Shown here: piece after piece, positions 3,967 to 30,483 of the stretch
Layout: every line of letters starts with the position of its first letter
How positions within the stretch are numbered: position 1 is the stretch's first letter
Source: a virus
Lineage: Duplodnaviria > Caudoviricetes
Virus record (IMG/VR): IMGVR_UViG_3300021255_005860
Location: 1 to 64,000 of that record
Reading direction: 5' to 3' (one strand)
Length of the DNA stretch: 64,000 bases
Program-made: the position numbers and the translations under genes
The notes under the pieces: generated by a model
What the model was told of the DNA's origin: nothing
The model's database searches: none
What the model saw: only the letters and a program-made list of their open reading frames with translations

Positions 3967-4149
3967 ATGCCTTATATCCCGAATAGATATGAACCATCTA
4001 AAGATCATCTAGATCGTCAAGACAAAAAGACCTACCATAAAGAAAGATCGATACTAGTATCGCTACCTATGGGACCACTTGAGATAGCAGAAGGACTAGT
4101 CAAAGATAACCCTAGTTTGATAATTATACCTAGAAATAAAGAAGAGTAA
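3967..4149 (+). CDS. small hypothetical protein
   Basis: 60 aa ORF; its stop codon abuts the first cassette. Confidence 0.5.
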   Translation: MPYIPNRYEPSKDHLDRQDKKTYHKERSILVSLPMGPLEIAEGLVKDNPSLIIIPRNKEE

Positions 4150-4150
4150 G

Positions 4151-7100
4151 TGCAGAGAACCATATTGTCCGTGCACAAATGTATTTGGCATTCCATTTGA
4201 TTGATGAAAGTAGAATATGCCATTACCCGGGCCTTCTCCTCCACCGGAACGATCGCATCCTCCGCATAACAAGTAGATTCCAGTAGGCTCATGTGGCCAA
4301 TGATAATCTTGTTATCACTTTCTTGTTCATGGTACATGTAGAATATTCCTATTCAATTAGCACTGCGATATCAATCTCAGCTAGCACGCTCTTCCCATGC
4401 AGCTCCACCATAAAGGTTATGATACTCCGAAAATGATGCCAGTGTTAGAGAACCTATGCATTCCCACGCTATCGTTACGGCATGATAGTAGCATGAGTAT
4501 ATTCCTCCAGACGTCTTAGAACGGAATATGTCTCCAGTATTTAACTGGTTATCGTCCACAGTACGGATCGCATGATAATCCTGAGTCAGTTCACGAGAAC
4601 CCATATTCACATCTGCTGAGGCGTCATTTACAGTCGAGCCTTGGCGAAAAATGTCATGAGCATAGTCTCCGCTGCCCGAGTTCCAAGCACCACCTATAGC
4701 CCAAAACATTTTTCCTCCGGAGCCGTAATGATGATCCAAAATAATATCAGTACCGAGAACCTATCAATTTTTGCTCAACCTAGCAACGTTATTATCTGCT
4801 ATCCAGGTATAGACATCAAAACTATTAGACATGAATGCTCCGCCTTCAGTTCCAGTATCCCAACCTTTCCCAACAGTATAAGCTTTAACTCCTAATTCAG
4901 CATTGGCAGAATGATGACCTGTCAGGCAGAGAACCTGTATCAATTCTTACTTAGGCGAGAACCTATGAAATCCCAGAAGATTGTATTAGCGTGTTTATAA
5001 GCGTTGAATATACCGCCATTTCCGGAAGGCTTCCAAAACTCAGATGCGGCTCCATTGATACTGCCACCGCCCACCTGCATTTCAGTATCGTTCGCATCTC
5101 TAGTCCAATGATAAGCCATCACAGAGAACCTTCTAAAGGATGAGCCTCAGTTATCCTAACTGGAGTTTGATTAAACATGCCACCACCTCTTGAGGTATTC
5201 CCTGTGGCCCAGTCGTCATACCACAGCCCTCCCAGCATGCGGTGAACTTTATCAGACGCCAGAGCTCCTCCTAAACTATTATTATCCACGCAATGATAAT
5301 ATCAGTGAGAGAACTAATAGTCGGTAAGCTATCAGTGGAGTATATAGTTCTGGCATAAAACACACCCGTGTCAGATGGACCGTTGATATCGTTGCCTCCA
5401 GTGCTAGTTGAAATCCATCTTCTATGACCTATTTCAACCCTGCCAGAACTGTAGACGGTCGTAGAATCAGTTGCTGACTCGGTGATATGATAATCTGGCA
5501 TATACAAAGCAGTTTGAGAACCCCATTTGTGATATGTCGTGAAAAACCATTGCTCCTGTGCAAATATTCCGCTTTGTTCACTATACTCGTCTAAAGCACC
5601 AACATGAACTTCATTTAACGAGGTATGAGTTCCATCACCTGACCAATGATAAACGACAGTCCAGAGAACCTATTTGTACATGATTCATACCAGGCCCTAC
5701 GCCTGTCTGATGAAGAGCTTCAAAGATTCCGGCAGTGTGCCATTGCTCCGCGTAGAATCCCGAGATGAGGATATCTCCGACATTGGGATCACTCTGCAAG
5801 GCATGATAATCGTGGTCATTGTAGAGAACCTGTATGTGCACGAGTTCGCTCCGTTTCGATGGTATTGTTATCGTCAATCCAATTCGTAATTGCGCAAAAC
5901 AAACCCATCGATGCCTCGGTAATAGCACTTGACCATAGACATCCGGCAAAATACATCGATCCACCAGAAGCAGAATTCGTATGATAATTTTTCAGTGCAG
6001 AAGAACCTATATCGACCCCGTCTTTGTATGATCCATTAGAAGAAGCATTCGTAAATCCACCGTTACGCGTTCCATTCTGCCAACTTACTGATGCGGATAC
6101 CGCTGAACCGTACCAATTGAATCTGGAATCATACGCAAAATGATATTCCCAGTTTAGAGAACCTAACGCTATCCACGGGTCTTCGATATCGTATTTGAAA
6201 AATGCACCATTCTTAGATCCTTGACTCCAATATCCTCCAACGCCTTGCTCTCCATTAGAATTAGTATCGAACTTGGAATGGTAGTGCGAGAGAACCCCAG
6301 ATCTCTCCATATCTGTGATCAATGTTATCGCTAAACAGTCCTATTGTTGTTTCAGCTCCAGGACCTCCAACATTGTATCCATGAAACGGATGGTTCACAT
6401 CGATTACATACCAATGATAATTAAAAATGTTATCAGTGTGAGAACCTGTTCCGTCAGTTATCGACCAAACTGGATCAATATTTACATCAAAAATTCCGGT
6501 ATGAGTTCCACCACCTAGAGTACCAGTAAGCAGCATTGTCGTATTTTTGCCTGCCTCATACCAACTTTCTTGTGCATACCTCTCATAAGACCAATGATAA
6601 GATCGATAAGTCAATGCGAGAACCTACATGATTCCAATAATCGGCATAAGGAATATCAGGATTACTTATGAACTCACCACCTGTAGGGTGATCGTACCAA
6701 CTTCCTGCAGTAAGTAAGCAAAATGGTTCGATCAATTGTGACGGCTCTCTTTCATCGGCGTAATGTACGATATGATAATCATCACAGAGAACCTCAATCC
6801 TTAGAGACTCGAGCTGTCCACGCATATAACGTGTCAATCGAAGATCCGTCACTGCGATTGTCCCAGGCAAATCCTCCTGAAAGATTATCGTTAGTAGCTT
6901 CTCCACCGACAGCTCTAGATACCTTTGACGCCTTCCCAAAATGATAATGTAACTGTTCAGTTCAGAGAACCTTAATTTTTGGATAGTCGTGCCACATGAG
7001 CGTCATTAGACGGTACAGAAGTATCGGCATCGTGGAAGATCCCGCTCCAACTAGTAGAAAGCGTAGGGTAATTCACCAAGTATTTTGATGACACACCAAC

Positions 7101-7162
7101 AAGAAATATATACCACGTATTCGGATTACTGGTCGGTGTCATGCCACGAGACTGATGATAAT
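4151..7162 (-). repeat. cassette array 1: 17 CLec-like variable-region cassettes plus one degenerate copy
   Basis: Plus-strand GAGAACC-type ends at about 4155, 4448, 4595, 4755, 4929/4957, 5124, 5309, 5516, 5664, 5824, 6000, 6157, 6290, 6440, 6618, 6787 and 6965, each paired with ATGATA. Minus-strand translations include DYHWPHEPTGIYLLCGGCDRSGGGEGPGNGIFYFHQSNGMPNTFVHGQYGSL and HYHSKFDTNSNGEQGVGGYWSQGSKNGAFFKYDIEDPWIALGSL. Confidence 0.9.
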
Positions 7163-7185
7163 TTTGCTCATAATAAGTATAATTC

Positions 7186-7193
7186 TATATTAC
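7186..7193 (+). promoter_or_regulatory. phiKZ-type early promoter (TATATTAC)
   Basis: Exact motif upstream of AAGGAG and ORF 7229. Confidence 0.7.
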
Positions 7194-7228
7194 TTAGTTG
7201 ATATAACAACTAAGATAAAGGAGAAGAT

Positions 7229-7552
7229 ATGAACTTACTTAAATTTGCACTACTAGAGCTTATAATAGCACATCTTCAAATGTATGAGGAGATGTTAGCT
7301 CGACATCAAGATATGCTAGCTAGAATGGATGCTACTATAACGTATTATAAAAATACTAAACAAATATTTAAAAAGCTAAAACAACATAACGTTCCTAGTA
7401 GTGCTGCTGTGGAATCAGCCATCGAAGCTGCCAAAGTAGCCGTAAGACGAGCTACTGCTGCTAAACAGGATTGTGTTAACGCCTTTATCACTGCTAAAGA
7501 AGAAACCCAAAGAGCAGTACTAGAACTGGTTATCTGTTTCAACTCGTTATAG
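7229..7552 (+). CDS. hypothetical helical early protein
   Basis: 107 aa with its own promoter, RBS and terminator; sits between cassette arrays. Confidence 0.8.
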   Translation: MNLLKFALLELIIAHLQMYEEMLARHQDMLARMDATITYYKNTKQIFKKLKQHNVPSSAAVESAIEAAKVAVRRATAAKQDCVNAFITAKEETQRAVLELVICFNSL

Positions 7553-7566
7553 AAGATGACATTTAA

Positions 7567-7597
7567 CCCTGTCTCATATGACAGGGATTTTATTTTT
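7567..7597 (+). terminator. intrinsic terminator
   Basis: CCCTGTC...GACAGGG stem plus T-tract. Confidence 0.7.
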
Positions 7598-7601
7598 GTT
7601 G

Positions 7602-9550
7602 TCAGTGAGGAGAACCTGTTTCCGGACCTTTATACGCAGCGTATTTAACGCCAATAGAGTCCACTATGAAACATCCAGATCCTAGTTCTGCATAATACCC
7701 GCCAATCAAATACACCGGGCGATCTAGCTCGGTGAGTGATCCACCAGGTTCACCGCCCAGCGAATGATAATTGCACCAAACTTATTATCATTGGCCTGGT
7801 GGTGAAACCACCGTACTATTCGGAGGAGACTGGACACTGGCGAACTCTACAGAGTGGGGAGATCGTCTCCGGTACGGTGGTATATTCATTTATCACAAAT
7901 CTGTAGTCACTGATAACGTCTTCGCGGGTTCTCTACGGACTATCATTGGGGTGGCGATATGGGACCTAACGGTTTTATTTATAACACACCAGGCTGTTTG
8001 GTAGCAGGCGGTGAATACAGCATTGATACTGGGCACGGCATTTATGCTCAAGGTCACACGCAACTATTAACCCCAGATGACTATAGCGGTAAAGGTTCTC
8101 TACGCTGCTCTAGTTATTATCATCTCAGTCAATACGGAACTCAATACATCTGGTATACGATCGGCAATGAAATCGTTGGATTTTCGTCACAGGGATATTC
8201 GACTTGGCCGGTAACTGCTGCTGGTTTACTAGGAAGTCAGAATTGGGCAGATCCGTCGGAACTCAATCCAGATATGGGGCCACATCCTGAGATAAGTTCT
8301 CTGCACTAGTATCTCAGATCTCTAGGTAATACATACAAGAAGTAAAAACTCCAGCGCATCGATGACCAAGACTCTCCAGTAAGAGGAACCCATCCGCTGG
8401 TTATACTCTGTCGGTTCCGCAAACGGATTATTGATAAAAAGTCCGTTTTCTGCTGCATCAATGTACTAGTAACCGCTCGTACACAAGATACGGACTCCAG
8501 ATAGTGCTCCTAGATGATAACTGAAAACATTGTCAGTACTGAGAACTGTACCAGTCTTCAACATGCTCGGCAGTCCAGTCGATGTCGTTACCGAATAAAC
8601 CACCGTATAGGTCGGAGCCTGGAAATCCGCCTACGGTCATAACGACGGTCTGTGTTGGGTTGTGATCATTGTAATGATAGCCTGTGCGAGAGAACCTGCA
8701 TAGGCATTATTAGTAATTGCGGATTTGTGGTAAAGGAATATACCTCCGTACTGAAGACGATCTCCCCACGCCGATGGACTTGATAGCGTCCAGTCTCCTC
8801 CGAACAGTACGGTGGTTTCACCGCTAGGCAAATGATAAACGGTAATCAGTGCAAGAGAACCTATTGATGCATGTTTACCGCCTTCATACGCAGGATAAGG
8901 ATCGTACCAATTGTTGTTATGAAAAATACCAGCCGCAGTACCTGCACCTGCGTAATCGAATCCTGTTAGATACACTTTCCACGATCCGACGTTTGGGTTT
9001 TCCGCATGATAGTCAATTTGAGAACCTGTATTAGATCCGCTTGACGCGGGACTAGTATGAGATCTAGACAACAGTCCACCATCATAATCTCGCCACTCAC
9101 CGCCAATAGTTACACTCGGACCAAAATACGACGCGGTCGAAACATATCCATGATAGTGCCAGTCAGAGAACCTTGACGCGCATCGGTGTGTGGAGCGACA
9201 CTTGGGATCTGTAAATTGGCCACATACTCCCACACTCTACCTAAATGAAATAACCCAGCTCTGTTAGAACCGCTAGATACACCAGTATCAGATGAGTAAC
9301 ATCCCAACGATTGTGGCACTGGGTATCCAGTTGCAAACGATTCGTACTCTCTTGTACCGCAAGGCTGATGATAATATAAACTAGTGCCAGAGAACCGTAG
9401 ACTCCATATCCTGAATCTAAAGGAGTAGGTTCGTTGAAGAACGCTCCACCTGTGCTAGAGGGTTCCCAAGTTCCTACACAACCGACTAGTGATTGAGTGG
9501 AGCGATTGGTACCATCGTGAAACAGATGATGATTCGCAGCACAGAGAACC
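7602..9550. repeat. cassette array 2: 11 cassettes (8 minus, 3 plus) plus stubs
   Basis: Minus ends at about 7610, 8384, 8541, 8690, 8855, 9020, 9166 and 9390 (stub at 9544); three plus-strand cassettes in 7783-8309 end at (G/A)GTTCTC 7927, 8094 and 8295. Confidence 0.9.
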
Positions 9551-9585
9551 TCTTCATATTCGATACTAGCATTTTTAATCTATAG

Positions 9586-9617
9586 GGCACTAGGACCTAT
9601 TAAAAGGTCCTAGTGTC
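9586..9617 (-). terminator. hairpin terminator
   Basis: CACTAGGACC...GGTCCTAGTG palindrome downstream of the 9656..10243 gene. Confidence 0.55.
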
Positions 9618-9655
9618 TTACTTATATCTTTTTAAGATATTAGATTAATGAAACA

Positions 9656-10243
9656 TTACCCTTTAAGCCAGGTAAATGCATAGCCTAAAGAAGCTACATT
9701 AGATGCACCTGTTAAAATATCTACAAATGCGCGTTCATTGGTAAGAGGGTTGATAATAGTCAAAGCTACCGTGGTGTCTTCACATGGACGTATACCAGAT
9801 ATAACAGTTAGAAGAATATAGTTAATACCCTTGGTAACCTGTGAACCTAAGTATACAACAGGTTCTAGATGTGCACCTACATAGCCTTCAAATCTCTTGT
9901 GGAAGGCTGCCTTAATATCCTCTGGAATTTCGGTTTGAACATCGATCTTGATGCCACCCATAGGTGCACCTCCTTCAAGAACACGTTCAATGTTAACCAA
10001 AGTAACATCTTCACCTTTCTCATTGAAGATCATTAAAACAATATTCTTCTGATCACGACCGGTGATAAGTAACTGCTCAGCCAATACGGCGTGGTTAGTA
10101 CCATTTACAAGTTGTGAGCCTAAATAAGCAATAGGTGTATATTCAGCTCCCATAAGGTTTAAGTTACCAAACGCAGAAGCAATTTTCTGAGGCATGCTAC
10201 CAACGGTAACATTGACAGTCCATTCACCTAAATTTGATGCCAT
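9656..10243 (-). CDS. protein with two tandem cystatin-like (QxVxG-type) repeats
   Basis: Internal duplication YTPIAYLGSQLVNGTNHAVL / LEPVVYLGSQVTKGINYILL; AAGGAG RBS. Confidence 0.7.
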   Translation of the reverse strand: MASNLGEWTVNVTVGSMPQKIASAFGNLNLMGAEYTPIAYLGSQLVNGTNHAVLAEQLLITGRDQKNIVLMIFNEKGEDVTLVNIERVLEGGAPMGGIKIDVQTEIPEDIKAAFHKRFEGYVGAHLEPVVYLGSQVTKGINYILLTVISGIRPCEDTTVALTIINPLTNERAFVDILTGASNVASLGYAFTWLKG

Positions 10244-10345
10244 AATTAAATCTCCTTACGACAAGATAATCTCCCCCATAAGTAATATGGGTTTTCCAAA
10301 TTATAGTAGATACATAGAATTAATTAAAATTCTTAAATATAGAAC

Positions 10346-11984
10346 ACTGTGCATAGAACCTATATGTACGTCATCATCTCTGTTTGCGACGTATGTTTCA
10401 TATGTAAACAATCCGGACTGAGGATGACCATCCCACCAACCTCCTGCTGACGCATACGGTCCTTCCCGACGATACTGCGACCACTAATGATAAATGATGG
10501 AAGTAACGCAGAGAACCTGCATAATCGCGGACAGACTCTTCACTACCACTTTCACGCAGCCAGTTGATGATGTTACAAAAGATTCCTCGATGCAATGGAG
10601 CAGCATCGATGCGAAACATACCTCCCACAAACTGTATTCGTCCGTTTGATGAACTAAAGGCATGATAGTTCAGTTTGAGAACCTATATGACTATAACCAA
10701 GTTCATCGTAATAATTGAGCACAATACAGAATATACCGGCACTAGTGGGATTCGGAGTAGGAGTTCCATCCCAGTTCATAGCCGATCTGCCGGTCGTAAC
10801 TACGAGAGTCCTAGTCATATCGTCAGTTATCGTAAAGCTATGATATCCCTCAGTTTGAGAACCTACAGTTCCTCCTTTCAGTCCAGTGTAGATCAGCACT
10901 GCATATCCTCCACTACCTGGACCACCGTTAGTCTCTTCTTGTAACGGACCGATGTTACAACCACCGGAGCAATAGACTCCACTGACATAATTGACCCAAT
11001 GATAATGTCATGCGGAGAACCTCTATCTTTGTGACCGTTATCGTCCGCCGGTGAAGCTCCATGGAAAATACCTGACCAATTAACTGTATCAGTTCTACCC
11101 CACGGCCAAGCATCATTGCCTACCATCCACAATCCGGTGTATTTCGTTCCAGATCCCCAATTATGATAAAGCCACTGCGAGAACCATACGCAGCATTTTC
11201 AAAGTTCATATTAGTCTCCCAGGTAAATATTCCAGCACTACTTCCATTTGCAGTTCTTCCACCAGTGATTAGTGTGTTGTTAGCTGGGACATTGTTGACG
11301 TAATGACAGTTCGAGAACCATTGACGGATGCAGAGAGGTTGGTACGATAGCAACAGTTAAAAAATAATCCTGGGGTAGTAGATCTACGATCAGGATCAGA
11401 CGTACTACTAGACCATTCTGCATTAGCACCTACCCAGCAATCATATTCATTAGTAGAAGTAGTAACAAACCAATGATAACAGTGCATAGAACCTCGAGGC
11501 TTCTGTGCTTCCCAACTCAAACTCACATCTTGAACCCTGTATATGCCAGCATACGTTGTTCCGTCGCCGTAGTGTCCTCCAAATTGCACGAAATGCTGCG
11601 AAATAACACCGGACCCATCGATTTCAGAATAATGATAATAAGTTCACTGTAAGAGAACCTCCTATGGCCGCAGTACTCAAAATCGGCACTCTGCCACGAT
11701 AGAAAATACCCGCATAACCTGATCCTGTATCAGTATTAAAAGCTTCTCCACCTGTGCTCACCATCAACGATACACCAGCAGCCCAGATTACTCCAGAATT
11801 CGCTGCTTCACCGCTACCGTGACGATAGTCATGTCAGAGAACTTATATTCTTCATTCCTGATTCTATCCATCCGTGATAGTTATAGATTCCTGCTGAATT
11901 AGGCATTTCTTTCGAAGTGATCCAACACCCCCCATTTATAGCAGCAGGTCCTCTAGCATCCTCGCTGTGCTGAAAATGATAATA
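10346..11984 (-). repeat. cassette array 3: 10 cassettes
   Basis: Ends at about 10354, 10511, 10677, 10857, 11015, 11179, 11313, 11487, 11653 and 11837; e.g. CHYVNNVPANNTLITGGRTANGSSAGIFTWETNMNFENAAYGSR. Confidence 0.9.
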
Positions 11985-12017
11985 TAACAGCATAAGCTTC
12001 ACCCTAAGGAGATCTAT

Positions 12018-12317
12018 ATGTCATTTATAGTTAAAGTGTCTAACATATTTAGGATATTAACCCATCGTCCTATCCTACATGAAGAAGAAGGATTCTATCC
12101 TTGGACCAGTGAAGATCCTGTAAGAGTTAGAAAAGATGGAGGGTTCGGTATCAACTTAAATAACCCTAGAGTATTTAACCACATCAACCGTAACCTCCAC
12201 TTGATGCAACATATCAATAATGATCTTGCCTCTAGAATAGCTAACCGCACTCTTACTGAGAAAGATAAACAATACTTAGCCAAAGTTCAGGCTAAGATAG
12301 ATAAAAAATTTAAATAA
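12018..12317 (+). CDS. hypothetical protein
   Basis: 99 aa, AAGGAG RBS. Confidence 0.75.
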   Translation: MSFIVKVSNIFRILTHRPILHEEEGFYPWTSEDPVRVRKDGGFGINLNNPRVFNHINRNLHLMQHINNDLASRIANRTLTEKDKQYLAKVQAKIDKKFK

Positions 12318-12490
12318 CTCTAGATCAACGTTCATAAACCTACATCAGTTTGGGTTGTTTTAACATTTGTAATAAAAAAACAAATCGATACATAAGATGA
12401 GTGAGATCAGGGATATTTCAACGCCTCCCTGAAGGGCGAACTGCATCCTGCTATGAGGGTCAGTCTCATCTTAAGATGAATGCATAGATC

Positions 12491-12778
12491 TTAAAGAAGA
12501 CCTAGTTGTTTAGCCTGCTGTGTGGTTAATGCGGTGAACACGTATGCAGGATCTACATGTAGCCCGTAATTTAAGAGAAATTCTGTATAGAAGATCACAT
12601 AACCGGGGTGATTTTGTATCTCTGCATATTTGCGTGGAAGCTGTTGCATGTATAGTTCCTCACGTTGATTAAACAGATGCTCCGATCGTTGCGACACCAA
12701 CGATCTCAGTGAAATAATATACATCTTCAACAAAGATGAATATTTAAGATACATACAGTTGGGATCCTGATGTCTCAC
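12491..12778 (-). CDS. hypothetical protein (start uncertain)
   Basis: 95 aa ORF, no clear RBS. Confidence 0.4.
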   Translation of the reverse strand: MRHQDPNCMYLKYSSLLKMYIISLRSLVSQRSEHLFNQREELYMQQLPRKYAEIQNHPGYVIFYTEFLLNYGLHVDPAYVFTALTTQQAKQLGLL

Positions 12779-12891
12779 TCACAAAAGAGAGAACACTACC
12801 TCTTGGAGGTAGTGTTCTCCCATCGTACTGGTGTTCATCAAATTTCATCTCTATATGACTGATGGGAATTTAACCAACTTTCTGCGAGATA

Positions 12892-13506
12892 ATGATTATG
12901 AACAGCATCGAAAAAGCTATCACCATGAACTCAGTGTCGATAGTATTTGCAACCGCCCTATATGCGACTGTGTACGGGTTGATATCGTTCCGGCTCGTCA
13001 ACCAGAATATTTTGACTCCTCAGATCATCGGGGCGTCTAACATGGCTACCACGATCAGTGGTATTTTAACGTATCAGCTCTTGGAGAAGGAGCAGATACT
13101 CAAATGAGTAGACTCCCATTTAGAGTGCATACTAGTGTGCTTGGGCATAATAACCATGGGCGGGTTAGCTGTCACCCTAGTGTATCCACTCGTTGGGTAC
13201 TTTATCGACGGAATTTGTTCTGTCTCAGTCGGGATCGTTTTCTTCCAGGGAAAGCAATTGTCAATAAACGCACGTATCGTAGATACCAGCGAAAGAAAGT
13301 ATAGGACTCTTCTGCAGGGAAGAGCGGGGAAGGCTAATTTTATTGGAGCGATGCTAAGCGGCATCGCAATGATCATAATCGGCAATGCTGATATTGTCTA
13401 TGTGATCTATGTGGGAATCATTCTAGTGATCCCAGATACTTTGATAGGGCTCTACTCCATTAGAAAGATAAGAGCTCTTCCAGTGAGAGAAGAGGAGATG
13501 AAATAG
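12892..13506 (+). pseudogene. multi-TM membrane protein (half-MFS-like) interrupted by an in-frame TGA
   Basis: ORFs 12892..13107 and 13135..13506 are in the same frame, separated only by TGA at 13105-13107 (EQILK*VDSHLECILVCLGII); both halves are hydrophobic. Confidence 0.6.
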
Positions 13507-13510
13507 AAAA

Positions 13511-13558
13511 CAGGAGCCCATCTTTGGTGGGCTCCTGCGACTTTGTTGTTTTCTTTTT
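13511..13558 (+). terminator. intrinsic terminator
   Basis: CAGGAGCCCA...TGGGCTCCTG stem followed by a T-rich tail. Confidence 0.65.
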
Positions 13559-13577
13559 CACGTAATAGACTAAGATG

Positions 13578-14068
13578 TCAATACAGAGAACCTAAATTAT
13601 CATACTTGACAGTAGGAAGGTTATGACCTTCGTGGAAGATTCCTACGGAATTGATAACTGTCTCTCCACCTGATGAACCCATAACGACTATACCATCAGT
13701 ACCATATAAAAATGCTCCAGGGGCAAAGTCACCACCAAAATGATACTTCCGTTCAGAGAACCTCTTGTTGCAGTACCCACTTCTCGTTGCAGTCCGACAT
13801 CGGTGAAGATTCCTCTAGTAGTAGTAACATTGTCAGCTTCCGATGTTACTCCTGCCCATCCAAACATCAGTGTTGTATAATCTACTTTTTGTACGGAATG
13901 TTAATCCTCAGGCTAAGCAGCGCAGGAGAACCTAGATTGATGCCTTTAGATGTATCTTTGGTGCGGTTAACCTGGAAGATTCCTATACTGCCTGTAGATG
14001 AACTATACGAGTCCCATCCGGCTCCTATCATCACGGTGGTAACATCAGCATTTTGATCAGCATGATAA
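13578..14068 (-). repeat. cassette array 4: 3 cassettes
   Basis: Ends at 13586, 13756 and 13926; e.g. IYHADQNADVTTVMIGAGWDSYSSSTGSIGIFQVNRTKDTSKGINLGSP. Confidence 0.85.
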
Positions 14069-14119
14069 ATACAAAACGTTAAAAATCTCCTTCACGAGGG
14101 TCCCTTAACCCCTCGTGAA

Positions 14120-14510
14120 GGATGCGACCATAAATGTCAGCAAATACACTTGCATTTCAAATCAAGATAGGAGCCACTAGTAACACAGGTATACAATCGA
14201 TGTGTGAGTGGCTGCACACTGGACCTGCCTTATCGATCATCCTGCGATAGTCATTTGACTAACTACCCGTGGTTGCCAGCTACGTAAAGAGCTGACTTGT
14301 TAGTTCCAAACTACTCTAGGTTTCATAGAGGAGAACAATTAGCCGTTACCACGATTGTCTTCACACCCAAGTCCCTTTAGCTATTCACCTATACGTTCTA
14401 TCACAGAAACCTAATAGAACAGGTAGGACTGTTAATAGGCTCACTCATGCTAACCTCGATGAGTCATTAAGTATCACGGCACTGCATACAATAGTACTCA
14501 TACTGTCACA
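14120..14510 (-). ncRNA. candidate structured ncRNA (unclassified)
   Basis: About 390 nt without a tracked ORF, with many short stems (ACTCAT/ATGAGT, GTTCTAT/ATAGAAC, GTCAGCT/AGCTGGC, AGCCACT/AGTGGCT, CTCTA/TAGAG); G-U pairs favour the minus strand. Confidence 0.4.
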
Positions 14511-14554
14511 ATCTACATTTGACAAACATAATCTTCATGGAGTTTTAACTATAT

Positions 14555-14932
14555 ATGGATACTGAGGAATTCTTAAAATTCAGCTCTGAGATCAAATTAA
14601 ATAAAAATGGTTCTATCTCACCTGAGGCTTTATTAAAGTTACAAGAAACTTATAAGGATAAAACCTTAACTTATCTAAGATGGTATTTAGGATACCTATC
14701 ACTACATAACGTCTATGACAGATTAGCTAAATTAAAATCTCCTCAGTTTCAATTGATCCATAACCTACCTATAGAAGATGCTACCACTAAAAGATCGATA
14801 GAATCTTTTTGCGAAACTCTACTTACGATCATTGAAGCTACTAACCGTGAGTTGGAAGGTATAGCCGTTGCAAGTTTATCCGATTGCCCTAAAGCTATCG
14901 AAGAAGGACTATTTTCTCCTGTAGATAAATAA
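14555..14932 (+). CDS. hypothetical protein
   Basis: 125 aa, GGAG RBS. Confidence 0.75.
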   Translation: MDTEEFLKFSSEIKLNKNGSISPEALLKLQETYKDKTLTYLRWYLGYLSLHNVYDRLAKLKSPQFQLIHNLPIEDATTKRSIESFCETLLTIIEATNRELEGIAVASLSDCPKAIEEGLFSPVDK

Positions 14933-30348: not shown

Positions 30349-30483
30349 TTCAGAGAACCTACATATACTCTACTATTATCTATCAGATCGACTCCACCCT
30401 GCCTAAATGCACCAGCTCTCGCGAAGTTATCGATCTATCCACTGATCACTATGAAGCACATCTGTGCCCACCCATCATGATAA
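30349..30483 (-). repeat. solo variable-region cassette
   Basis: TATCAT...GGTTCTCTGAAC encoding FYHDGWAQMCFIVISG*IDNFARAGAFRQGGVDLIDNSRVYVGSL. Confidence 0.8.

Follow-up and report, generated by a model that had tools for sequence, protein, structure and literature searches.

Silent cassette arrays in a phiKZ-like jumbo phage as a probable donor library for the variable tip of a tail protein

A 64,000-nt stretch of viral DNA (positions 1-64,000 of the 153-kb record IMGVR_UViG_3300021255_005860; hereafter, the window) carries arrays of short coding units of about 50 codons each. On the evidence presented below, we consider it very probable that the arrays store silent donor cassettes, devoid of promoters, from which a single expressed tail protein receives its hypervariable C-terminal tip. 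The record, with a CheckV completeness of approximately 53%, derives from a phiKZ-like jumbo phage encoding split multisubunit RNA polymerase beta subunits and virion proteins, only about 30% identical to those of the nearest GenBank phages. The sample names under which near-identical contigs are found (SHIW14-1, SAMN02144230, SAMN02144231 and run SRR873604) presumably denote a sheep-rumen metagenome. The window was compared with three strain contigs: L009 (approximately 97.5% identical), L010 (93-97%) and L059 (93-97% over window positions 1 to 10.6 kb). The latter, 49 kb in length, reaches past the window start, and genes were called on about 28 kb beyond that point.

The expressed gene, referred to here as the acceptor, was reached by walking along L059 past the start of the window. 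It occupies positions 8021-9358 of this contig on the minus strand, approximately 1.6 to 3.0 kb past window position 1, and encodes a protein of 445 amino acids (P0023) whose C-terminus consists of the sequence ..ENQGTFSDYH, a 44-aa tip and GSRLSKN followed by the stop codon. More generally, tips in this position measure 40-55 aa. The constant region runs ..TTCTCGGATTATCAT up to the tip and continues as GGTTCTCGTTTAAG.. after it, followed by a spacer leading to an Avd-like gene. Searches based on the cassettes had missed this gene. When longer proteins were sought with the cassette profile in a word-indexed search, only a spurious open reading frame (ORF) of the window itself came up; an exhaustive search of 1.84 billion proteins with a cassette hidden Markov model (HMM) returned only array ORFs of the window phage and of one other phage; and a tail-bearing cassette used as query gave no match. 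The original prediction, made from the window alone, had called for a full-length gene with a homologous C-terminus and with TATCAT and GGTTCTC at the same positions as in the cassettes. P0023 is such a gene, located on the strain contig outside the window. Its product matches the PHROG category "tail protein"; neither a sequence-level Pfam or PDB match nor a tblastn match among GenBank phages was obtained.

Comparison of expressed tips with silent units provides the central evidence. The P0023 tip is the same as the silent window cassette at 11835-12020 (minus strand) at 143 of 146 nt, with 96% amino-acid identity. The identity runs from ATTATCAT (including TTATCAT) to GTTCTC, and the sequences flanking it are unrelated. 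A second allele, P0024, was found in L065, a contig from the same BioSample series as the sister strain L059. Its constant region is identical to that of P0023 at 385 of 394 residues and its tip is unrelated. The P0024 tip matches a different silent unit, L059:536-688, from ATTATCAT to GGTTCTC, and both of its flanks are those of the L059 acceptor. Two more distant phages with acceptors about 70% identical, L061 and L062 (from contigs of 232 and 227 kb), showed the same relationship within a single contig. In L062, a silent unit lying 6 kb from the expressed tip, in inverted orientation, matches it at 164 of 166 nt and is bounded by TTTTCGGATTATCAT and AGTTCTC; in L061, a silent copy is identical over the first ~130 nt of the expressed tip, the last 35 nt being mosaic. 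Altogether, a silent match to the expressed tip was found in all four cases in which arrays of the same or of a sister genome were at hand. These near-identities ending at the border motifs support the idea, already contained in the original prediction, of a donor repertoire that swaps the tip of an expressed tail gene.

Donor and acceptor sequences differ at 3 positions for P0023, 2 for L062, about 10 for L061 and 9 for P0024. Most of the donor bases concerned are not A, and no adenine-specific mutation pattern is apparent in the four tip pairs. Together with the unequal length of the tips, this agrees with the early assessment that the units are not ordinary templates of a diversity-generating retroelement (DGR). 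Since the donor is retained, the contigs of L062 and L061 each containing both the expressed tip and its silent copy, the transfer is non-reciprocal. Chimeric assembly is an unlikely source of the pattern, because the borders are far shorter than assembly k-mers and because the pattern recurs in independent assemblies.

The cassettes were delineated at two levels. A protein-level regular expression, YH..GG.W..GIF..GS, yielded 31 clean in-frame units extending from YH to GS(L/R/Q). An HMM built from these raised the number to about 42 units between 4099 and 14091, and no other match better than E = 0.1 was found with it in the 153-kb record. At the DNA level, units are bordered by TTATCAT on the left and GGTTCTC on the right. 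On the minus strand, 34 of the 40 GGTTCTC copies in the 153-kb contig fall within its first 15 kb. The composite pattern GGTTCTC-N3-30-TATCAT occurs 26 times, in all but one case between 4.4 and 13.8 kb; a reversed-pattern control gave none. The result agrees with the proposed layout of some 42 cassettes in four arrays plus a solo copy, with TATCAT and GGTTCTC at their ends. Codon usage at the borders is strikingly uniform: GGT is used in 29 of 31 units (36% of internal Gly codons), TCT in 30 of 31 (25% of internal Ser codons) and CAT in all 31, and the next base is a C in 28 of 31. Because synonymous sites are fixed to an extent exceeding internal codon usage, the borders appear to be constrained as DNA and not just as Tyr-His and Gly-Ser. 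In L059, the sequence GAGAACC (part of Glu-Asn-Gln codons; L059:8190-8215), about 20 nt upstream of TTATCAT, reads as GGTTCTC on the opposite strand without a mismatch, so that in the L059 clade a 7-nt inverted repeat encloses the tip; this is not so in L061, where the right border is GGTGCT.

Most of the cassettes lie on the minus strand. Array A (4099-7184), identified with the HMM, the regular expression and a junction listing, contains about 18 units arranged head to tail, antisense to the flanking plus-strand genes. It is followed by a single minus-strand cassette (7605-7781) and by a block of three cassettes in inverted, plus-strand orientation (7771-8309; regular expression and HMM). 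One unit of this block, 7786-7935, is a paralogue of the minus-strand unit 8688-8837, with 81% nucleotide identity. The remaining arrays, all on the minus strand, are array B (8536-9579; about 7 units, HMM), array C (10304-12020; about 11 units, HMM and junction listing) and array D (13581-14091; 3 units, regular expression and HMM). The solo copy, at 30349-30483 on the minus strand, lies in the structural module and is decayed: it reads YH..AGAF..VGSL, has an internal stop and matches the HMM weakly. Arrays are bracketed by terminators, and the early-promoter-like motif TATATTAC was not found on their sense strand. Multi-cassette ORFs matched no Pfam family, the window, L059 and L061 contained no Rfam family and a cassette ORF gave no tblastn match among GenBank phages.

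The units had been described as devoid of ribosome-binding site and start codon. This holds for the majority; one unit, 4940-5122, departs from it in having an ATG and a possible ribosome-binding site. Linkers do not keep the frame, as initially noted: of the 17 pairs of adjacent clean units, 8 share a frame and 9 do not, which does not differ significantly from the one pair in three that chance would put in frame. Similarly, the statement that every unit ends with GGTTCTC applies to nearly all of them, the departures being three window units that bear a complete tail, RLSKN plus stop, ahead of the next GGTTCTC. Two of these are neighbours in array A (4764-4943 and 4940-5122, minus strand), one ending in ARLSKN* and the other in GSRLSKN*, each followed by a separate GGTTCTC linker element (asterisks denote stop codons). 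The third is the first unit of the same array (6972-7142, minus strand), with the tail ARLSKN*. All six tail codons vary synonymously between the copies, which argues that the tail was kept at the protein level. From these relic tails, the expressed protein could be predicted to end in GSRLSKN, and this is exactly the end of P0023.

Orthologous cassettes could be compared by means of the strain contigs L009 and L010. Over the 15 to 25 or so orthologous units that passed alignment filters, out of the 31 clean ones, the ratio of nonsynonymous to synonymous polymorphism (pN/pS) in the cassette frame took values of 0.19 and 0.35, compared with 0.6 to 1.8 in the other two frames. Purifying selection thus acts on the cassettes, and does so solely in their own frame; the low pN/pS values in that frame show that they are kept functional. 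Individual units can nonetheless carry lesions. Unit 10352-10483 of array C has a TAG stop at a position where L009 has TGG; the window sequence (10484-10517) reads YH-TAG-W and that of L009 (252-392) YHWW. A silent unit can therefore bear a nonsense mutation, which would be exposed if copied into the gene.

Strain comparisons also revealed turnover of the arrays, unit by unit. In L010, array A has undergone unit-precise replacement, gain and loss. Cassette 6300-6421 is swapped for an unrelated one, homology breaking off exactly at TATCAT and resuming just before GGTTCTC. Two cassettes of array B (9164-9531) are likewise swapped, in L010, for two unrelated cassettes. Other differences between the window and the strain contigs consist of single units gained or lost. 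A 923-bp segment (7607-8529), holding the inverted block and the adjoining single cassette, is missing in L009 and L010 and is flanked by direct linker repeats, GTTCTC-NNN-ACTGACAA. The motifs that border the expressed tip also mediate unit-precise replacement, gain and loss within the arrays. Independent assemblies start or stop inside cassette arrays. If our reading is correct, the library would explain why assemblies of these phages from metagenomes break at this locus and why about one-tenth of the genome there appears non-coding to gene callers.

The strain contig showed that cassette arrays lie on both sides of the acceptor. The second region comprises at least 19 units on both strands, bringing the total of the two regions to more than 60 units over approximately 26 kb. 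The second region also contains a gene for a 196-aa formate/nitrite-transporter-like protein (L059:4086-4676; PF01226, E = 4e-21), an unusual cargo for a phage.

Further information came from modelling the acceptor protein. The AlphaFold (AF2) model of P0023 has a predicted local distance difference test score (pLDDT) of 90.7, lowest in the tip. Its best PDB match is TaqVP (5vf4), with a Foldseek E-value of 4.6e-8, a probability of 1.0 and template modelling (TM) scores of 0.45 and 0.51 over some 430 columns. Mtd of a Bordetella phage comes next, weakly (E = 0.015 or more), mixed with FN3-domain matches. The modelled fold thus resembles that of DGR variable proteins and supports the view, taken in the original prediction from the cassettes alone, of a C-type-lectin-fold protein akin to DGR targets.

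The gene directly downstream of the acceptor (L059:7061-7666) points in the same direction. Its product matches the Pfam family bAvd (PF22296; 49.8 bits for a cut-off of 40, E = 5e-13) and phrog_3206, "Avd protein of DGR" (E = 2e-10). The model is a four-helix bundle whose best matches are the Avd chains 8ub7 (from the bRT-Avd complex) and 4dwl (bAvd), with TM scores of 0.70 to 0.84 and weak E-values; the protein has an additional N-terminal part of 90-150 aa. The gene order acceptor, Avd-like, X and DUF4376 tail-fibre-like is common to L059/L065 and L061, whose acceptors are about 68% identical. Between the acceptor stop and the Avd-like gene lies a gene-free spacer of 354 nt in L059 (7667-8020) and about 817 nt in L061 (11363-12178). 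The spacer is rich in perfect hairpins in L061 and has a fold z-score of -2.6 in L059. Neither spacer has an Rfam match, and no sequence similarity was found between the two. In a DGR, the template RNA would occupy this position.

Enzymes that might act on the cassettes were looked for, as the original prediction had recommended, with negative outcome. No match to the reverse transcriptase (RT) family RVT_1 (PF00078), nor to serine (PF00239) or tyrosine (PF00589) recombinases, was obtained in the 153-kb record, representing about half of the genome. Neither RT nor recombinases are listed among the genes called on the further 28 kb or so of strain contig. There is no RT within 10 kb of avd in L061, and none in the complete genome of phage G002. 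No DGR template repeat was found in the approximately 180 kb formed by the record and the strain contig.

The acceptor belongs to a family of 78 protein clusters with 35-89% identity. The flanks of the tip are conserved, ..DTHDLMELFLP.TVVSAENQGTFSDYH on one side and G/A-S/R-RLSKN on the other; the tips are hypervariable and unequal in length. Arrays with the same DNA borders are present in at least four further phages (L012/L013, G001/L035, L061 and L062), a point that the original prediction had proposed to check. The linker is longer in G001, where it reads GS.LTKNKGTFSDYH when in frame, and many G001 units end in SRLSKN*. Both features indicate that this linker is homologous to the acceptor tail plus left flank. 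Acceptor and cassettes of L061 both have GGTGCT (Gly-Ala) as their right border, compared with GGTTCTC in the window clade. Borders thus co-evolve with the acceptor, which is more readily reconciled with copying guided by homology than with a recombinase acting at a fixed site. A scan of IMG/VR for the DNA pattern produced 42 loci, about the number expected by chance, with one real array (L035/G001). A short-model search of G001 missed even the array known to be there. Three relatives, G002 (287 kb, complete), L066 and L067, possess the acceptor gene, without arrays and without an Avd-like gene nearby. Some homologues of the acceptor (P0042, P0045, P0050-P0052, P0055-P0059, P0061, P0067 and P0071) are longer, 507 to 626 aa, owing to a Cys-rich C-terminal part with YGYVTRTR repeats, and end in R(I/L)(A/S)KN. 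The long Cys-rich homologue of L067, which has no arrays and no Avd nearby, is adjoined by an HNH_3 endonuclease gene.

We regard three elements as shown, namely the library of selected silent tips, the one expressed gene and a non-reciprocal transfer delimited by shared motifs of 7-15 nt; the most likely scheme is the following. Tip exchange would consist in the copying of one cassette into the acceptor, the block being bounded by short motifs common to gene and cassettes. On the left, homology would involve 7-15 nt, (TTYTCGGA)TTATCAT, encoding ..SDYH; on the right, 7-8 nt, GGTTCTC(G), encoding GS. The donor would stay in the array and the event would be non-reciprocal. Flow in the reverse direction may also occur: units with an RLSKN* tail, whose structure is plain, could be expressed tips archived into the arrays. 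The purpose of the system might be a fast change of receptor specificity, drawing on a stock of tips kept functional by selection. As to the enzymology, we lean slightly towards a DNA-level process, either templated repair or copy-choice at microhomologies during replication, possibly assisted by the Avd-like protein. This route is favoured because no RT was seen, because the borders co-evolve with the acceptor and because the same borders mediate replacements and deletions internal to the arrays. A more specific version appears rather unlikely to us: that a former DGR lineage devoid of the mutagenic RT, having kept the variable protein and an enlarged Avd, runs an RT-independent, Avd-assisted form of homing. 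Any unit placed between two motifs of 7-15 nt would then be copied into the gene and between array slots. If true, this would amount to a programmable, microhomology-guided copy-and-paste reaction of a kind not described for any virus.

Several points weigh against the proposal that the arrays serve as a donor library. The evidence for switching comes entirely from comparisons of alleles, strains and genomes. The acceptor of the window strain itself lies outside the 153-kb record, and the most important alignment therefore pairs sequences of two sister strains. A single genome does not reveal whether copying ran from array to gene or from gene to array, and part of the pattern could stem from exchange between co-infecting phages. 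Furthermore, by the standards of classical recombination of the RecA/UvsX type, arms of 7-15 nt are short, and no recombinase, nuclease or polymerase is tied to tip exchange.

Other explanations differ from this proposal either in the intermediate or in the role assigned to the arrays. Among them, the one we would consider possible, if doubtful, has the same outcome and replaces DNA copying with an RNA/cDNA intermediate. Cassette transcripts would be faithfully reverse-transcribed by an RT-Avd complex, the RT being encoded elsewhere, and the cDNA would replace the tip, priming and integration taking place at GGTTCTC and TTATCAT. Such DGR-derived retrohoming would account for the Avd-like gene directly downstream of the acceptor, for the DGR variable-protein fold of the latter and for the gene-free, moderately structured spacer of 354-817 nt between the two genes. 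A distant RT acting with Avd would also explain how donors, which are retained, can function in either orientation and at any distance, including more than 10 kb. However, no RT is apparent in any of the regions searched (the 153-kb record, the strain contig and the surroundings of L061 avd), bearing in mind that the genome is incomplete. No template repeat was found either, mismatches do not fall at donor adenines, and the arrays lie between terminators with no phage early-promoter motif on the sense strand. A site-specific recombination mechanism that moves cassettes to the gene end, like those of shufflons, Min/Cin/Gin invertases or integrons, could be suspected from the short conserved sequences that flank every unit, from the inversion of one three-unit block and from the integron-like array of promoterless cassettes. 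We judge it very improbable, as no tyrosine or serine recombinase was found over the 153 kb or listed on the additional 28 kb, nearly all units are in direct orientation, ordinary genes separate the acceptor from the units, and donors remain in place after use. Moreover, the right border co-varies with the acceptor (GGTTCTC, GS, here; GGTGCT, GA, in L061), which fits homology and not a fixed site.

Two further explanations deny the arrays a donor function. They could be a graveyard in which displaced former tips pile up unused, like orphan Rhs/CdiA C-terminal modules, new tips arriving through horizontal exchange or having been produced by a DGR now lost. Four units, in which the acceptor tail and stop (RLSKN*) precede the linker, are what displaced gene ends would look like, and some units do contain stops or frameshifts. 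Yet a cassette-frame pN/pS of 0.19-0.35 bespeaks units kept functional, the tips of two sister alleles both have silent counterparts in the arrays, and most units have no tail, ending exactly at the common motif; we therefore hold the archive to be improbable as a full explanation. Least credible of all, to the point of being nearly dismissible, is translation of the units in place, whether as small independent genes or as one repeat protein frameshifting through the linkers. Some runs of two or three units are in frame, unit 4940-5122 has its ATG and possible ribosome-binding site, and the G001 linker can be read as GS.LTKNKGTFSDYH in frame. Against this, most units lack a start codon, the frames of neighbours are random (8 of 17 in frame), the arrays sit between terminators, and a full-length acceptor using the same units exists.

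The arrangement has clear counterparts among bacterial antigenic variation systems. Like vlsE/vls of Borrelia, pilE/pilS of Neisseria and tprK of Treponema, it combines one expressed gene with arrays of promoterless partial donors that are open in their own frame, and copying is non-reciprocal with the donor retained. Short conserved repeats at cassette borders are also found in vls (17 bp) and tprK (4 bp). Unlike these systems, it resides in a jumbo phage of lytic type and varies a tail protein, which encounters bacterial receptors, and not an antigen exposed to immunity. Replacement of the whole tip seems to be the rule here, with a segmental mosaic seen once (L061), and a DGR Avd homologue adjoins the gene, with no RecA-pathway context known. 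With DGRs such as mtd-avd-TR-brt of BPP-1 or that of Thermus TaqVP, the system shares the Mtd/TaqVP-type fold, a C-terminal variable region followed by few constant residues, an Avd homologue beside the target and one-way copying into the variable region with short border homology. It differs in that neither an RT nor a single template repeat was found, in the lack of an adenine-specific pattern and in having more than 60 donors of differing length; diversity is stored rather than generated de novo.

Stored alternative C-termini that are joined to a constant N-terminal part are also a feature of the DNA inversion systems (Gin of Mu, Cin of P1, Min of p15B and the R64 shufflon, with Rci and PilV). 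Those systems have a dedicated invertase and inverted crossover sites beside the gene, and their segments, offering 2-7 alternatives, are moved and not copied. Here, in contrast, no recombinase was found, the repeats are mostly direct and lie kilobases from the gene, and a donor persists after copying. Orphan C-terminal toxin modules of rhs and cdiA are start-less gene ends with a short conserved junction, recombinable into the main gene, and the displaced tail plus stop on some of our units is reminiscent of them. However, an rhs/cdiA array has a small number of modules, which span several hundred codons, come with their own immunity genes and recombine through long homology, as opposed to dozens of 50-codon units with borders of 7-15 nt.

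Phages are known to retarget receptor binding through point mutation, DGR hypermutation, DNA inversion and exchange of modules between phages. A full-text search of the literature, including a recent jumbo-phage review, found no report of a phage tail protein that varies by means of silent cassettes; cassette-swap systems are described for bacteria and we found no description for phages. If the present interpretation is right, a stored library of dozens of selected tips would be a further retargeting strategy and a viral counterpart of bacterial and protozoan antigenic variation. The occurrence of a DGR-type target together with Avd, in the absence of a visible RT, bears on the evolution of DGR components and on the role of Avd. 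With borders so short and clearly delimited, the reaction lends itself readily to laboratory tests with a phage-host pair.

A few other elements were noted in and around the arrays. A TnpB-like gene of 415 aa (OrfB_IS605/Cas12f1-like_TNB) is situated at L068:13934-15181, some 23 kb past the acceptor in the strain contig. A link between this gene and the cassettes was considered and rejected, the region downstream of it having no 12-mer or longer word in common with the acceptor and no border motifs. The gene-free interval 14100-14560, upstream of array D, was examined as a candidate RNA; it matched no Rfam family, and the other array-bearing phages compared contained no homologue of it. Between arrays B and C, on the minus strand, a gene conserved in all strains (9656-10243) encodes a 195-aa protein with two internal repeats and no Pfam or PHROG match, and is followed by a strong terminator (9583-9620). 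Finally, a 240-nt segment between arrays C and D (12490-12730) has an 87% identical copy at L060:19595-19906, which in the strain contig is some 18 kb past the acceptor.

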